Of a DNA stretch of 64,000 nucleotides, positions 29,598 to 59,902 are shown in pieces. The notes under the pieces were generated by a model. That model searched no databases and was not told where the DNA came from. It saw only the letters and a program-made list of their open reading frames with translations. The stretch is from Salinispira sp. GTDB taxonomy: Bacteria > Spirochaetota > Spirochaetia > DSM-27196 > Salinispiraceae. A program made the position numbers and the translations under genes. The stretch spans positions 2,016,001 through 2,080,000 of the forward strand of contig OZ271918.1 of the NCBI GenBank assembly GCA_965602015.1. The letters run 5' to 3'. How positions within the stretch are numbered: position 1 is the first letter of the stretch; the number at the start of each line of letters is the position of its first letter.

Positions 29598-30536
29598 TTA
29601 AACCTCCGGTACGTCTATTGTATAGCTCTCCCGCAGCCGCTCGAGCTCGGAGGCAATGGCTTCCTGCTCTTTCTGACCGCTGAGATAGTTGCGAATGCTT
29701 TCCCTCGCCGTTTCGAAGTCGATGAGGCCCGCTTCGCTGCGTTCCCGAACAAAAATCAGGTGAAGCCCGAATTGAGTCTCTACTACCTCACTCACCTCTC
29801 CTACCGGCAAGGCAAATGCGGCTTCCTCGAAGGGTGCGACCATTTGGCCTCGTTCGAAGGCTCCGAGATCGCCGCCGTTGGGCCCGCTCGGTCCCTCGGA
29901 ATACTCCCGGGCCATCTCCGCGAAATCAGCGCCGTCGGAAAGTCTACGGGCAACCTCGTTTATTTTTTGCTCTGCCTCAGTCCTCGTCGCCTGATCGGCA
30001 TCAGGATCAAGCTGAATGAGAATGTGCGAAGCTGTTACGGTCTCCGGCGTTTCAAAATACAGCGGGTTCTCCTGGTAGAATAACTGCATTTCTTCTTCAT
30101 TTACTTCGATTTCTCCGTAAATTTTTTCTTCAATATATTTTCTAATTAAGAGAGCATCGCTAATCTCCGCAAGCAGGAGCTCTTCGGTGTATCCGTATCC
30201 GGAAATAGCATTGAGGTACGCCTCTTCATCGGGAAATTGTGATTTAACAGTCTCCAGCTCGGCATCCAGCTCGCCATCTTCAAGGGAATATCCCGCAGAA
30301 CTGGCTGCGGCCACCAGGAGCTTTCTCTCGACAATCTGCTCAAGCAGACTGCTGCGCATATCCTGAACCTGTGCCTCGGTGATGTTTGCCCCTTGGGCCT
30401 CATACTGATTCATCATGCGGTCAACTTCGAAATTGAGCTCTTCCTCGCTGACGCTGATGACTTCGGCTGTGCCTGCGCAGGAGGCGATCAGGAGCAGCAA
30501 AGCTATAAATACAGTGGTGAAACTACGTTTTTTCAT
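29598..30536 (-). CDS. PrsA/SurA-like parvulin peptidyl-prolyl isomerase lipoprotein
   Basis: IASC lipobox; ASHILI, FAEMAREYSEGPS, GGDLG, MVAPFEEAAF, ETQFGLHLI. Confidence 0.92.
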   Translation of the reverse strand: MKKRSFTTVFIALLLLIASCAGTAEVISVSEEELNFEVDRMMNQYEAQGANITEAQVQDMRSSLLEQIVERKLLVAAASSAGYSLEDGELDAELETVKSQFPDEEAYLNAISGYGYTEELLLAEISDALLIRKYIEEKIYGEIEVNEEEMQLFYQENPLYFETPETVTASHILIQLDPDADQATRTEAEQKINEVARRLSDGADFAEMAREYSEGPSGPNGGDLGAFERGQMVAPFEEAAFALPVGEVSEVVETQFGLHLIFVRERSEAGLIDFETARESIRNYLSGQKEQEAIASELERLRESYTIDVPEV

Positions 30537-30630
30537 GAAAAATCCTCTGATAAAAAATCCCGTCTATATGGGTAAAACGGTCACGCCCACCCTATCAGTT
30601 TGGGGAAATTTCATCCAGTGTTACACAGAA

Positions 30631-31254
30631 CGGTCGCGCCGCTCGTTGGTTTTACGTCCCGGTATTTTTAAAAATAAAAAGCCCTCTGATGAGGGCTTTT
30701 TAATTCTACCGGAGACGGGACTTCCTCCAAGTGGCTCACTTCCTGTTCGCCTCTTTCCGGCCGCCTTCCTCGCTAAAACGCCCTCCGTGGCGTTTTGCGC
30801 TTCCTATTCGGTCGCGCCGCTCGTTGGTTTCAAGTCCCGGTTTTTTAAAATCAAAAAGCCCTCTGATGAGGGCTTTTTAATTCTACCGGAGACGGGACTT
30901 CCTCCAAGTGGCTCACTTCCTGTTCGCCTCTTTCCGGCCGCCTTCCTCGCTAAAACGCCCTCCGTGGCGTTTTGCGCTCCCTATTCGGTCGCGCCGCTCG
31001 TTGGTTTCAAGCCCCGGTTTTTTAAAATCAAAAAGCCCTCTGATGAGGGCTTTTTAATTCTACCGGAGACGGGACTTCCTCCAAGTGGCTCACTTCCTGT
31101 TCGCCTCTTTCCGGCCGCCTTCCTCGCTAAAACGCCCTCCGTGGCGTTTTGCGCTCCCTATTCGGTCGCGCCGCTCGTTGGTTTCAAGTCCCGGTTTTTT
31201 AAAATCAAAAAGCCCTCTGATGAGGGCTTTTTAATTCTACCGGAGACGGGACTT
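30631..31254 (-). repeat. tRNA-Leu-linked tandem array: three 177-bp units plus a 93-bp distal partial unit
   Basis: Units at 30724-30900, 30901-31077 and 31078-31254 differ only at 30802 and 31012. The hairpin GCCCTCTGATGAGGGC starts at 30681, 30858, 31035 and 31212. Each unit ends in TACCGGAGACGGGACTT, the tRNA 3' 17 nt. Confidence 0.97.
31207..31232 (-). terminator. intrinsic terminator of tRNA-Leu (repeated 4 times in the array; potentially bidirectional)
   Basis: AAAAAGCCCTC-TGAT-GAGGGCTTTTT. Confidence 0.85.
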
Positions 31255-31323
31255 GAACCCGTACAGCTTTTTCGAGCCGGGGGATTTTAAGTCCCCTGTG
31301 TCTACCAATTCCACCACTCCGGC
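31238..31323 (-). tRNA. tRNA-Leu(TAA)
   Basis: GCCGGAGTGGTGGAATTGGTAGACACAGGGGACTTAAAATCCCCCGGCTCGAAAAAGCTGTACGGGTTCAAGTCCCGTCTCCGGTA. Cloverleaf with long variable arm and TAA anticodon; CCA not encoded. Confidence 0.97.
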
Positions 31324-31385
31324 ACGGTCGAGGCGATACTACTATGGCCCTTAATCCGTGGTCAAGCTTTTGCTATACTGGGCAT

Positions 31386-52528: not shown

Positions 52529-52774
52529 CTATTCGCCGGCTTTTTTCCCCGGCGCGGGGGGAAAATCGCCCAGGGAAGGCAAATCGGCGCTCGACTCGGC
52601 CGCCCGTCGGTTTTCATCCTGTATGGCTTCGTAGACTTCGTGACGGAATACCTTGACCGATCGGGGAGCCCGAATTCCGAGCTTGACCTGATCTCCCTTG
52701 ATATCCACTACGGCAATTTCTATGTCATCGCCTATCATAATCGCTTCGTTTATTTTCCGGGTGAGTACCAGCAT
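52529..52774 (-). CDS. csrA: carbon storage regulator
   Basis: [20 protein letters not shown]...[19 protein letters not shown]. Confidence 0.96.
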
Positions 52775-53265
52775 CAGGAACCTCCCCGGGCAGCCATTTC
52801 CTGAAGAATGTAATGCTTGGTCATCCATCGCGGATCGGTCTGTATTCCCTGCATTCCCAGCCGGGCGGCTGGATTAATAACGATGGGTCCCTGAAGGTTG
52901 GCGGTCATGCTGTCTTTGTCACCGGTTACCGTCACAATTGCAAAAACCAGGAGTTCAGCGGGTTCATTGCTCTGATTTACAATGAGATCGCCGGTCTCCT
53001 CCTGTCGGATTCCGATTATATCCAATTCCTGGCTCACCAGACTCAATTCGTAATCCGATCGGAATATGTCCGGCGAGATCATCACAAAGGCGGTCGAGCT
53101 GTCCCCCAGAGACTGCAGCCAGTAAAACGGCGCCTGCGCCGCATCCAGGAGGGCAAAGCGCCGGTGCTCTTCGAAACCGAGGATTCCCTTGGGGAAATCG
53201 ATAATCTGCCGCTCGTCCACTTCAATCTCGCCAAAGGCCCTGGCCTGTATCGTCTTCATTGTCAC
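52774..53265 (-). CDS. fliW: flagellar assembly factor FliW (CsrA antagonist)
   Basis: [26 protein letters not shown]; coupled to csrA. Confidence 0.94.
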
Positions 53266-54506
53266 CTCAAAAAGTCCAGCAGTGTGGGTTGAATCACTTT
53301 AGCGGCCACCGAAAGGGCGGCCCGGTGGGTTTGTTCAAGCATGGAAAACTCGGTGATGGCCTCGGCCAAATCGATATCCGTCAGACGGGAATGGTGTGCG
53401 CTCACGTCGACGAACTCTTTTTCAAGACGTTGGTAGGCCAGTTCCATCCGGCTTGTCCGGGCACCCAGACTGCCGAGGTTGCTGAGCATATTGCTCAGAG
53501 CGGAATCCATGCTCCGTATTCCGTCCCCGCCGATGTCCAGGGTATCGCCTTGCAGCAGGTTGTCCCGCAATCGAATAATGGCGTCAAAAGCGCTGCCCCC
53601 GAAGACCCTTGCGTCCCGGGAAATATTCTGGGGAGGCCGGGCATCTCCGTCCTGGAGTATACCCAAGTCCTGCAATACCGTGCCGTTTTCATCGGCGAGC
53701 CAAAGCTGCCGGGGGCTGGTGGTCTCGAATACCAGGGCTGCGGAGACCGGGTCCAGGCTCGCCCTGGCGCCGGCTCCGGCGTCATTTATTTTGGCCATCA
53801 CCTGGTACACATTGTCCCCTTCCCGAAGCCGGATGGAGGTTCCGTTCACCGTTATTTCACTGTCCGATTGAACAACGTAGTCCCCCGCCTGGGTTTGGGA
53901 ATAAATTTGCTGATTCTCGGCCCAGAACACCTGGTTTCCCGGGAAATTCAGTTCGATATACTTGCCGTCGGCAATTTCAGTCCGCTTTACGCCGATGTCG
54001 CCGATGTACTCCACATCGGTCACCATGGCAGCTCCGGATCCCGGAATGCGGCCCTCGAGCACCCGATACGGCAGATTTCTCGTGCGGTTGCCCGAAAATA
54101 TGCTCAGCCCCTCGGAATCAGTGGCATTTGCCGTGTTGATAAACTCTTTCAGGAGCTCGTCGACCTGGCGGCCCATAGCCTGGAGATCGTTGGCGTCGTA
54201 GGTCCCGTTGCCGCCCATTACGGCGATCTGACGGATTTCCTGCATAATGTCGACGCCGTGGCGCATGTGACCCTCGGCCATGCGGTAGTGGTGAATGCTG
54301 GTTTGAACATTGTCGCTGAATCGCTCCAGGCGATTGAGATAGCTCTGGTGACGGGTCGCATGGGCGGCGGCCGCCGGATCGTCCCGAAGATTGAGAATCC
54401 GGGTCTGGGCCGCCATCCGGTTCTGCGATTCGTTCATTTCCACCTGGCGATTCCTGGTATGGAACTGCAGATTATCATTTGGCAGATTCGTACTGATCCT
54501 GTTCAT
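53262..54506 (-). CDS. flgL: flagellar hook-associated protein 3
   Basis: MNRISTN...LRDDPAAA...[10 protein letters not shown]. Confidence 0.94.
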   Translation of the reverse strand: MNRISTNLPNDNLQFHTRNRQVEMNESQNRMAAQTRILNLRDDPAAAAHATRHQSYLNRLERFSDNVQTSIHHYRMAEGHMRHGVDIMQEIRQIAVMGGNGTYDANDLQAMGRQVDELLKEFINTANATDSEGLSIFSGNRTRNLPYRVLEGRIPGSGAAMVTDVEYIGDIGVKRTEIADGKYIELNFPGNQVFWAENQQIYSQTQAGDYVVQSDSEITVNGTSIRLREGDNVYQVMAKINDAGAGARASLDPVSAALVFETTSPRQLWLADENGTVLQDLGILQDGDARPPQNISRDARVFGGSAFDAIIRLRDNLLQGDTLDIGGDGIRSMDSALSNMLSNLGSLGARTSRMELAYQRLEKEFVDVSAHHSRLTDIDLAEAITEFSMLEQTHRAALSVAAKVIQPTLLDFLR

Positions 54507-54581
54507 TCTCTCCGTCCTTTATGCACCGCCGCACACAACTGCGGCATGGCTCACGGCCCAAGGGGCCGGACTATATTATTT

Positions 54582-56459
54582 TTACACGCCCATCCGGTTG
54601 ATGATGGTATCGAGCATCTGATCGAGCTCGGTGATAAAACGGGATGCGGCGGTGTACCCGTGCTGGTACTTGATCATTTGAGCAAGCTCTTCATCGATAT
54701 TGACCCCGGAAATCGAAGCCCGTGTGTCCCGCAAATCCTTCATGATCCGCTCCTGGGTATCGAGGGCGAGTTCGGCTTCCCTTCCCTTTAATCCGATCTC
54801 CGCCACAACATCAGCGAAGTAATCATCAAAGCGCTCAATGCGTCCCACCATAACCGGCTGGTTGCGAATCGCGGCGATTTCCAGGGCTGCCCGTCCGTCG
54901 CCGATGTCTCCCGGCCTGTCCTGGGAGCCCAGGGCTGTGGCGATGCTCCCCACATCCTGTGCGACCTCATCGCTGATTTGGATCCACCCCGATGGGTGGG
55001 TCAAGGGGGCAACTTCGAAATCCAGAGCGCCGCCCCTCAGCGCCGCCACCGCATCGCTCTGGTCGGAGCTAAACGCGCCGGCATCACCACTGGCCAGGAG
55101 AATCCCCGAATACCCGACGAGGAACTGTCCGCTGTCCTGCACCTGCCGAATAACAAAATCAGGATTGTCGATGGATGCCGACGGTGTGGCTTTGAGGCTC
55201 ATTCGGCCCTCTCTATCGAGTCTGGCCACCACCTCTGCACCTGAGTTGTTAATTCTGAGAATCACGTCCCGAACCGTATCTTCCGGGCGGTATTCCACAT
55301 CGACAGGTCCCGACGGTCCGTTGAGGGTAATGGTGCCGCCGATTCCGATTTCCTGCTGGGGGTCGAGGCTGTTCTGCCCCCGGATGCGGAAAATGTAGGT
55401 TGAGTCGAACTCACCGTCGCCGTCGGCGTCGAAATTGCCGTTAACGTTATTGATGTAGGGGTGCTGATCAAAAAAGTTCAGGCCGGTGCGCCCGTTCATA
55501 CCGAAACCCTCCCGGTGAACTTCATTGACAAGGTCGATAAAGTTGATGGCCATGTTGTCCAGCCCCTGAATCTCCTCCCGGATGTCAACATCCCGCAGTT
55601 CAATGAGGGCGGCAAGTTTTCCGCCTCTAAAATGCGCCTGCTCACCGTCGTATGTCCAAGTCACCCGGGTTTGACCGGAATTTCCCGGATCGGTATCCAG
55701 ACGCAGTTCCTGACGAACCGCGCCCTGTACAAGCTGAATGCCTGAGCTGTGCACATTTATTTCATCGCTGTCGCGATAATCGACGGTTATGTCGATGAGC
55801 TGACCAAGTTCCTCGATGAGAAGATCACGCCGGTCCATGAGATCATTCGGTTCGTCGCCGGCGGCTTTAACTTTGACAATTTCATGGTTGTACTGGGCTA
55901 TTTCCGCACTGAGCTCATTGACCTCGGCGAGGCTGGCGCGGATATCGTCATTCAGCATGCTTCGGATCTGTTCCAGGCCCTGATACCTCAGCTGTATTCC
56001 CTCGACCAAGGCCCGGCCGTTCTCCAGAACTGCCTGGCGCGAAGCCATCTGCTCGGGATAGATGGAAAGCTCCTCCCAGCTGTCCCAAAAGCGGTCCATC
56101 AGGTTCCGAACCGAAAGCTCGCTGGGTTCATTATAAATCTGCTCCATCTGCAGGATGTAGGCGTCCCTGGCCTGCCAATACCCCTCTCCGTTGGCATTGG
56201 CGATAATCCGTCCTTCCAGCAGCTCGTCCCGTACCCGTTCGATGCGGGCGATGTCGACGCCCTGGCCGATCTGCCCAGGGGTGTGGGCCCGGTTGAGCTG
56301 AGGCCGGTACAGGGCGTCGGTGGCTGACATATGGACCCGCTGACGACTATAGCCGTCGGTGGACGCATTGCTCAGGTTATGACCGACGGTGGACAGGGCC
56401 CGGGAGTGGGCAAACAGTGAACGCTTGCCGAGTTCTATTCCGGAAAAAGTACTTTGCAT
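54582..56459 (-). CDS. flgK: flagellar hook-associated protein 1
   Basis: GHNLSNASTDGYSRQ, NDLMDRRD, SGVNIDEE. Confidence 0.95.
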   Translation of the reverse strand: MQSTFSGIELGKRSLFAHSRALSTVGHNLSNASTDGYSRQRVHMSATDALYRPQLNRAHTPGQIGQGVDIARIERVRDELLEGRIIANANGEGYWQARDAYILQMEQIYNEPSELSVRNLMDRFWDSWEELSIYPEQMASRQAVLENGRALVEGIQLRYQGLEQIRSMLNDDIRASLAEVNELSAEIAQYNHEIVKVKAAGDEPNDLMDRRDLLIEELGQLIDITVDYRDSDEINVHSSGIQLVQGAVRQELRLDTDPGNSGQTRVTWTYDGEQAHFRGGKLAALIELRDVDIREEIQGLDNMAINFIDLVNEVHREGFGMNGRTGLNFFDQHPYINNVNGNFDADGDGEFDSTYIFRIRGQNSLDPQQEIGIGGTITLNGPSGPVDVEYRPEDTVRDVILRINNSGAEVVARLDREGRMSLKATPSASIDNPDFVIRQVQDSGQFLVGYSGILLASGDAGAFSSDQSDAVAALRGGALDFEVAPLTHPSGWIQISDEVAQDVGSIATALGSQDRPGDIGDGRAALEIAAIRNQPVMVGRIERFDDYFADVVAEIGLKGREAELALDTQERIMKDLRDTRASISGVNIDEELAQMIKYQHGYTAASRFITELDQMLDTIINRMGV

Positions 56460-59003: not shown

Positions 59004-59902
59004 TGGGCTGGGCCGACGCCGAGGGGAGCATGGTCCCGGAGATCCACAAATTCCTCCTGCCGCGAGAAGTCCACGCCGCAAGCCTGAGTTCGCGGCTTCT
59101 CAACGGCGGCGGAGGTCTGGGAGTACCCGGTGGAAGGGGAGACCGGCTTTTAGTCCATCGGGGGCATCTTCACTCCGCCAATGGCCCGGAAAGTCTCGAG
59201 ATTGACGCCCTGCTGTATTTGGGCGGCGGCGGATTTACCTTTCCCCTTTTTTCCGGAGAGTTCCGGACGCGAAACCAGTACCCCAGTCGTCGAAGTTCCG
59301 AGTTTCTTGAAAAAGCACTTTTCCAGCATCGCCGGCGCATCTTTTCCATTATGGGCGGCCGCGACGACACCGAGCAGACAATCTCGATGATGGGCAAGCC
59401 CCCCTACCACCGGGTGGATTATGTGGTAATGTTTCGCACGCCCCAGGCACCCGCCCCTCCCCTCTCCTACGATGGAGAGTTTCGAATCGTCCGCTCAGGG
59501 CAAAGGGACATCCAGAGCCTGCTGCCCCTTCAACTGGCATACGAGGCCGAGGAAGTGGTCATCCCGGGGAAGTCGGTCAACCCCTCGTTTACGCTCTCCC
59601 AGCTTCGACGTTCTTTGAGCAGTCAGCGGGTGCTTCACTTGATGTATGGGGACAGGGTGGTCGCAAAGGCTCAGACCAATGCCAGAGGTATGGGAGTCGA
59701 GCAAATAGGAGGAGTGTACACCCTGCCCGAGTACCGAAACCGAGGCCTTGGTTCCATGTTGGTGGAGAAGATAAGCCGAGACATCTGCGGCGACGGGAAA
59801 GTCGCTAGTCTCTTCGTAAAACGGGAAAATCAGCCGGCAATGCGGGTCTATGAAAAATGCGGATTCGAGCCTGGCTCCCGTTTCCTCATCGGATATTTCT
59901 GA
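59003..59902 (+). CDS. GNAT family N-acetyltransferase
   Basis: IGGVYTLPEYRNRGLG, NQPAMRVYEKCGF; overlaps the GH3 stop codon. Confidence 0.87.
   Translation: MGWADAEGSMVPEIHKFLLPREVHAASLSSRLLNGGGGLGVPGGRGDRLLVHRGHLHSANGPESLEIDALLYLGGGGFTFPLFSGEFRTRNQYPSRRSSEFLEKALFQHRRRIFSIMGGRDDTEQTISMMGKPPYHRVDYVVMFRTPQAPAPPLSYDGEFRIVRSGQRDIQSLLPLQLAYEAEEVVIPGKSVNPSFTLSQLRRSLSSQRVLHLMYGDRVVAKAQTNARGMGVEQIGGVYTLPEYRNRGLGSMLVEKISRDICGDGKVASLFVKRENQPAMRVYEKCGFEPGSRFLIGYF

Follow-up and report, generated by a model that had tools for sequence, protein, structure and literature searches.

The tandem array behind the tRNA-Leu(TAA) gene of this Salinispira genome is an ordinary member of a family of tRNA-linked units that share one layout, with arms matched to the host tRNA, a fixed junction, inner helices that covary, and copy numbers that differ between congeners. 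Taken together, the analysis inclines us, with little better than even confidence, to read the units as a structured RNA of the TLR type that would be made by read-through and is possibly a weak ligand of CsrA; the triplication seen here would be recent and probably neutral. The array lies in a window of 64,000 nucleotides (contig OZ271918.1, positions 2,016,001 to 2,080,000), to which coordinates given without a prefix refer.

Read in tRNA sense, on the minus strand, each period comprises a right arm R (tRNA positions 57-73), a terminator-like hairpin, a left arm L that is the reverse complement of the host T-loop and 3' T-stem, and a core of ~103 nt. TRF reports a 177-bp period in 3.5 copies with 98% matches (30631-31254), and only positions 31012 and 30802 vary among the three full units. 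The tRNA gene (31237-31324), in which CCA is not encoded, supplies the first R copy as its last 17 nt (31238-31254), and the same 17-nt end recurs from 31061, 30884 and 30707, each of the four being followed by the same hairpin. Copy 1 continues with its hairpin (31207-31232), left arm (31181-31193) and conserved core (31078-31180), the last folding into hairpins B, C (31129-31150) and D (~31088-31104), with GGA in both the C and D loops. Copy 2 consists of R (31061-31077), hairpin (31030-31055), L (31004-31016), in which the change at 31012 converts an A-U pair with R to G-U, and core (30901-31003). In copy 3 the corresponding elements are at 30884-30900, 30853-30878, 30827-30839 and 30724-30826, with one change at 30802 in the core. 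The decayed distal copy (30631-30723; 93 nt, 94.6% identity) retains R (30707-30723), a hairpin (30675-30702), and, at 30631-30661, a decayed left arm (30649-30661) with the first bases of a truncated core. Of the four hairpins, a consensus scan identifies just the distal one as terminator-like; the other three have the same stem and a T-rich tail. Upstream of the tRNA, a sigma-70-like promoter match lies at 31336-31365 on the minus strand (9/12 consensus positions; 1 found against 0.5 expected), and the consensus scan found no such promoter inside the array units. The array is bordered by TatD upstream and a SurA-type isomerase downstream. A 291-codon plus-strand frame through the array (30415-31290) was rejected as a gene, as many relatives' periods are not divisible by 3; this antisense frame stays open here because 177 is.

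A first-pass annotation of this DNA had described the tRNA gene, three 177-bp units with two variable sites and a decayed distal copy, as well as copies of the 17-nt tRNA end each followed by a hairpin, and TRF, a comparison of the units and the four located sites agree with it. Its account of the unit as a tRNA end plus terminator is correct as far as it goes, but overlooked the inverted T-arm L at each unit's start. Similarly, the polarity of divergence that it proposed holds for the distal remnant, which has diverged, but not for the three full units, across which there is no gradient.

The units are 99% identical and no contig spans the array in four runs of one sample, as might be expected if the array were an assembly artefact or the one-off slippage of unique DNA. 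This reading has a very small probability. Units 2 and 3 carry one private change each, a congener has an independent array at the same tRNA, and the collapsed 189-nt unit unitig has a depth of 77-87x in runs X1 and X2 where the flanks have 29-33x. The end-plus-hairpin unitig has 116-129x, so that the unit and the end-plus-hairpin segment stand at ~3x and ~4x the flanks, respectively, these depths coming from one sample that is possibly the source of the assembly itself.

The family extends well beyond this array. A core-only profile finds 15 matches in this genome at E<0.01, 12 of which stand behind nine genes (three at Leu-TAA, two at Leu-GAG, and others at Arg-TCT, two Met-CAT, Pro-CGG, Val-TAC, Gly-CCC and tmRNA), while the other 3 stand where a ~51-kb low-GC island, which has its integrase at tRNA-Leu(CAG), ends on the far side. 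Because tRNA-linked units, those of this genome among them, served to train the profile, hits of this kind are expected, and what is informative is that no hits occur elsewhere. The first-pass annotation had asked whether the inner segment occurs behind other tRNAs with a correspondingly changed end, and such units are found in this genome and in relatives. For instance, the complete genome of a congener (G002) has 27 matches to the corrected model R2 at E<0.001. At the same tRNA-Leu it carries two identical units with a different terminator and core, at Pro-CGG six alternating units, and five units each at Asn-GTT and Pro-GGG, where this genome has none. Two terminator-core types alternate in the Pro-CGG array of G002, and in the Pro-CGG arrays of both congeners (L026, L032/L066) a ~42-nt hairpin interrupts the acceptor strand of every right arm.

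Within the order, 34 of 57 genomes match the earlier model R1, as do at least 5 of 120 other genomes of the phylum; the structure of R1 is out of register in 3 of its 6 helices, and both counts are mostly sequence-based. With R2, at least 17 of 100 other genomes of the phylum match. For both phylum counts 29-35 candidates were scored per genome, so that misses are not absences, and the weaker matches in the phylum's other groups are tRNA-adjacent in 14 of 15 loci. An exact pattern scan of GTDB gave at least 119 stretches, 80 of which were listed and scored. Among the matches listed, all 36 spirochaete-labelled stretches match R2, under the labels Spirochaeta, Salinispira, Alkalispirochaeta, Marispirochaeta, Oceanispirochaeta, Breznakiella, Treponema and others. 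Three of the 44 listed non-spirochaete stretches have an upstream tRNA, and two score well, an Omnitrophota MAG (64 bits) and a Deltaproteobacteria MAG (43 bits); the remaining 41 have no tRNA nearby and were taken as chance. In the Omnitrophota MAG (L146:295-560) the unit stands behind tRNA-Val(CAC) with the terminator absent, and behind the core there is a second copy of the tRNA end with its ~20-nt trailer, resembling a long target-site duplication. There was no match in 50,697 phage records, nor in viral contigs scanned with one exact pattern, both being weak blanks.

Across 80 loci, 118 of 131 matches have an upstream tRNA or tmRNA gene on the same strand. Seven of the other 13 are near contig ends, four are behind the displaced tRNA halves of islands, and two have no called gene, one of these being near smpB. 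The junction is fixed at tRNA position 55-57 over 13 tRNA/tmRNA labels. In 93 two-armed units, selected by requiring R at 12 of 17 positions, T54 and T55 are kept in 1-2%, C56 in 82%, and positions 57-69 in 98-100%. The left arm is complementary to the whole T-loop, and of 7 variable sites 6.0 agree with the arm's own host, compared with 3.56 for shuffled hosts (maximum 4.28 in 5000 shuffles; 32 hosts). At two loci where R differs from the host in the T-stem, the left arm follows R, fully in L022 and partly in L046. The terminator is centred between the T-loop and the left arm (median offset -2.5 nt, 102 segments), and array periods cluster at 177-195 bp, with 1-6 copies per locus in relatives compared with the 3.5 here. 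Acceptor positions 66-72 are mirrored in the left arm as well at 14 of 60 loci, against an expectation of 2.6 (maximum 8), as if the arm had been fold-back copied and later eroded. Among 61 last units, 52 have the unpaired R positions 66-72 without a mismatch, a count partly forced by the 12/17 filter.

The evidence that the units fold comes from an alignment of 63 non-redundant units out of 81 distinct ones (65 passed the redundancy cut, and two long outliers were dropped). In this alignment 86% of cells pair, whereas shuffling leaves 64% and sliding 30-41%, and changes on both sides are seen at 26 of the 32 pairs. Because the structure was derived from the same sequences, and because the basal stem follows the host tRNA, such that its covariation is not independent proof of pairing, the weight is carried by the inner helices, which are 79-95% paired with many pair types. 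It is here that the notion of the units as functionless scars of past island traffic, kept by recurrent duplication only, meets its main difficulty. Units do stand at island ends, many are truncated, and their presence differs between congeners, but the inner helices show compensatory changes among sequences that are ~58% identical, and do so in a further class of the phylum and two assemblies from outside the spirochaetes too; compensatory changes at such identity require selection on the fold. Covariation thus largely refutes the scar reading, which we regard as highly improbable.

Strand signals bear on whether the fold acts as RNA. GGA occurs 7.0 times per unit on the tRNA strand versus 1.5 times on the opposite strand; of the 81 units, 54 have it in loop C, 53 in loop D and 34 in both loops, loop D often being CACGA. 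Over all stems G-U pairs number 43 versus 29 for A-C, and one single pair accounts for 19 G-U versus 2 A-C. Since G-U is barely above A-C overall, these figures leave room for a fold at the DNA level.

The partner of the left arm depends on the transcript considered. In an isolated unit the left arm is predicted to pair with the unit's own end with a probability of 0.95-1.0, whereas in the fold of the read-through transcript it is predicted to pair with the upstream tRNA over its own end, by 11.7 kcal/mol, a preference computed without modifications or tertiary structure. The latter pairing, with tRNA positions 56-64 at a predicted probability of 0.97-1.0, would suit a cis-acting switch on the tRNA precursor, in which the left arm made after read-through extends the terminator hairpin and invades the T-arm. 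The over-long precursor would then be marked for decay, or its processing delayed until the downstream end copy titrates the arm. Consistent with such a switch are the mirror spacing of the terminator and the fact that the arm keeps the complement of T54-C56, bases absent from the unit's own end, although this is partly forced by the anchor motif. Yet the pairing in isolated units, the left arm following the right arm at both T-stem-substituted loci, and a conserved core that the switch does not explain all speak against it, and the tRNA would presumably fold before the arm is made. Comparative support for a switch of this type is slight, and we consider it quite improbable, in either of its outcomes.

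How the arrays arose can be addressed by comparing cores. Within arrays, 26 of 43 distinct-core pairs are 80-100% identical and 17 are just 50-66% identical; the latter indicate that duplication alone does not build every array, so that arrays grow by both duplication and accretion. Sharing a tRNA type does not make cores of different families more alike (0.574 identity, versus 0.582 at different types), while within a family same-tRNA cores are 0.687 identical, and in 38 of 56 loci the nearest core neighbour is at another tRNA type. These values would fit vertical descent with repeated retargeting, a signal that is soft (permutation 54/1000) because core identities of ~58% are near saturation.

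Islands appear to explain some of the accretion. The three examined at these tRNAs push repeat units away. In the congener G002, an integrase (2436739-2437395) follows tRNA-Arg(TCT), and 11.5 kb further on an older allele is represented by a displaced tRNA half together with its unit (C1:2447600-2447932, L262). In this genome the island body is gone, and the same old-allele remnant stands directly behind the tRNA (C1:970700-970836, L022), with both arms following the old allele. What survives of the old allele is its displaced 3' half, whose T-loop holds a hairpin module of ~45 nt. A second hairpin module of ~45 nt is seen within units, directly after tRNA-Gly(CCC), after tRNA-Phe and inside right arms (L024, L025, L027, L029, L125), as well as in spacers after the two rRNA-operon-type tRNAs Ala-TGC and Ile-GAT, and seems to insert independently. 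In G045, integrase-less cargo (addiction modules and a TOTE primase-helicase) lies between tRNA-Arg and its displaced half, with units on both sides. Tandem islands lacking an integrase stand at tRNA-Arg(TCT) in L125 (1024-5392) and carry addiction-module, ParE, DUF2442 and AEP-TOTE helicase genes. The ~51-kb island at tRNA-Leu(CAG) in this genome (C1:3600290-3651313; L030, L031) encodes a 387-aa tyrosine integrase and has two att-like junctions, near 3602900 and 3600450, with a displaced tRNA half at each. Each half carries one hairpin in the variable arm and a repeat core in the T-loop, insertions that would likely block clean excision.

The first-pass annotation had interpreted the duplicated tRNA end as repeated site-specific integration at a T-loop attB site, an interpretation that is not supported by the junction, which is mid-loop and drops T54 and T55. 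In the three islands examined (two at tRNA-Arg, one at Leu(CAG)) the anticodon loop is where the displaced half begins, and these islands therefore do not cross over at the 56/57 junction. A related and more elaborate proposal is that each unit is mobile but non-autonomous, with tRNA end, terminator, left arm and core forming a circular cassette that a recombinase acting in trans inserts at tRNA 56/57. The two arms would form, in folded single-stranded DNA, a recombination site like integron attC, and arrays would record repeated insertion. This is the main rival to a read-through RNA, because the RNA reading leaves the fixed junction and the well-kept unpaired R tail unexplained. The exactness of R at positions 66-72 in particular counts against our preferred explanation, as it would not be predicted of a neutral tail. 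The mixed arrays with private terminators and distal decay, the small G-U excess, and the units that flank integrase-less toxin-antitoxin cargo in L125 would likewise suit a cassette, and the tRNA types that host the units are types often used by islands. However, as the first-pass annotation had noted for the array, no integrase is near it, the closest tyrosine integrase being 83 kb off, and there is none within 60 kb of any of the nine tRNA-adjacent loci in this genome. In addition, an integrase with a 7-bp overlap is expected to cross over at the edge of a loop rather than in its middle, the islands examined use the anticodon loop instead, and the purine-rich, strand-biased loops look like RNA. 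We therefore judge both the inserted circle and its attC-like single-stranded fold unlikely, while giving them serious weight.

Repeats linked to tRNA genes have been known in E. coli since 1978, and the primary paper on the RtT repeats is reportedly that of Bosl and Kersten from 1991. RtT repeats are described in the available text of PMC8144298 and PMC4986893. By the definition given in the former, a TLR lies immediately behind the gene in a tRNA or rRNA operon, in one to five copies, its 3' 18-19 bp are the 3' end of the upstream gene, and it is co-transcribed and processed to a small RNA (PMC8144298). The same text counts 22 TLRs in E. coli, with no known function, the RtT phenotype having been retracted (PMC8144298, 2021). 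The array here is directly behind a tRNA gene, has 3.5 copies, and repeats 17 nt of the tRNA end, which is 17 rather than 18-19 because CCA is not encoded. Judged by its layout, which is that of RtT and RrB, the array is a TLR, and not a member of RF00391.

The likeness to E. coli tyrT that the first-pass annotation had drawn is borne out, in that tyrT/tyrV (178 bp) and serX (three units of 181 bp) have the same layout. The serX TLRs (NC_000913.3, ~1.097 Mb) share with the array the succession of tRNA, intrinsic terminator, inverted arm, hairpin core and tRNA end, a reverse-complemented T-stem with GAA behind it in the same register, and three near-identical units with a truncated distal copy. 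They differ in their period of 181, in a right arm that starts from A58, and in a core that scores 7.4 bits (E 1.3) with the spirochaete models. In the case of RtT/rttR (RF00391) at tyrT-tyrV, there are three 178-bp units that each end in 19 nt of tRNA, with a basal stem of inverted arm and tRNA-end copy by predicted pairing, as in the spirochaete units; but the spirochaete model scores RtT at 8-9 bits, and the complementarity of the left arm to the whole T-loop is not shared by RtT. RF00391 (gathering 45 bits), which finds 18 sites in E. coli, has no match at E<=10 in the window or at E<=1 in four spirochaete genomes, and conversely neither R1 nor R2 gives a significant match to the E. coli TLRs. 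Thus, the spirochaete units are best described, on sequence comparison, as a variant of the E. coli-type TLRs, the likeness being one of layout between cores that do not detect each other. No description of TLRs in spirochaetes was found in a literature search that covered a minority of the subscription papers and bioRxiv supplements.

A further group of relevant RNAs is reported to bind CsrA. According to the available text of PMC8144298, RrA, RrB and RrF arise by read-through of the terminator T1 (87% efficient) and bind CsrA with a KD near 100 nM, and like the array units they are flanked by two terminators, finish with a repeat of the 3' end of the gene upstream and have GGA-loop hairpins. 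One RrB hairpin resembles hairpin D (3.2 bits, with 1 of 500 shuffles scoring as high). Unlike the array they stand behind 5S rRNA, and the whole-model score of 8.5 bits (E 0.71) is not significant. A CsrA predictor gave all 19 tRNA-operon TLRs values <0.01 in the same text (PMC8144298). The Csr/Rsm sponges (rsmX, CsrB) and TwoAYGGAY (RF01731) resemble the focal unit in having two GGA-type loops on one basal stem; the rsmX model matches the array at E 0.0035-0.005, with ~28 bits (28.7) that are half of the gathering 56 and lean on the terminator, and the array units differ from such sponges in that no own promoter was found in them. TwoAYGGAY is reported to vary in copy number, and tRNA linkage is absent from the available part of its description (bioRxiv 10.64898/2026.09.22.753630). 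The L. biflexa CsrA-like ncRNA is given without tRNA context in the available text of PMC4863578. TRIP1 repeats were also considered and set aside, being not tRNA-linked in the part of PMC10888264 at hand.

In the read-through explanation that we favour, the unit is a module of ~124 nt consisting of a T-arm reverse complement, a hairpin core and a tRNA-end copy, with the two arms predicted to pair, and its transcription likely depends entirely on polymerase reading through the tRNA terminator. In the manner of E. coli RrB, the minority of transcripts from the tRNA gene that pass the first terminator would yield an RNA of ~170 nt with its end at the following terminator. The earlier suggestion that a small RNA is produced by tRNA processing is doubtful as worded, since the unit has neither a T-loop nor an acceptor helix, and read-through between two terminators, as described for RrB in the available text of PMC8144298, would fit better. 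The GGA-type loops would bind a protein, for which CsrA is the best candidate, probably weakly. The three near-identical units may result from recent slippage or unequal exchange across the ~90-bp repeat of end, terminator and arm, and the added units would probably be neutral because each sits behind one more terminator. On long time scales, the core would move between tRNA loci and have its arms rewritten to match whichever tRNA it then follows; for the left arm, fold-back copying across the terminator palindrome is a plausible route. Islands that target tRNAs, which displace units and can carry them, would explain mixed arrays.

The gene for CsrA is itself in the window (52529-52828), and Pfam places csrA and fliW within 52529-53259, in a flgK-flgL-fliW-csrA cluster (52529-56459; flgK and flgL named by sequence appearance only) that is ~21 kb from the array. 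FliW is the assumed CsrA antagonist in spirochaetes in the available text of PMC8668096, and since fliW adjoins csrA here an RNA antagonist of CsrA is not needed. Against a strict Csr reading, moreover, both loops are GGA in only 34 of 81 units. If the units do bind CsrA, the output of tRNA promoters would be linked to flagellar and carbon regulation in spirochaetes.

A wider proposal would unite insertion and RNA function. The units would be a reprogrammable, protein-less mobile element, whose core inserts at tRNA 56/57 and writes a direct and an inverted arm from its target, the inverted arm guiding an enzyme of the host or of an island by base pairing. In that case one ancient family of tRNA parasites would span the TLRs of E. 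coli through to those of spirochaetes, some members having been domesticated as growth-rate-coupled CsrA ligands. We hold this to be rather improbable. More than 60 diverse aligned members with host-matched arms and strong covariation nevertheless provide handles that are absent from the E. coli copies alone. Programs that search for islands can also be misled by the units, which look like island attachment scars.

Two minor observations concern the surrounding sequence. Two ARAGORN tRNA-Leu calls in this genome (C1:1585127-1585223 and 3184690-3184778) look spurious, with no canonical arms and a coding-like context. Within the window, a 17-nt tandem repeat lies at 59547-59583 (2.1 copies, score 53).
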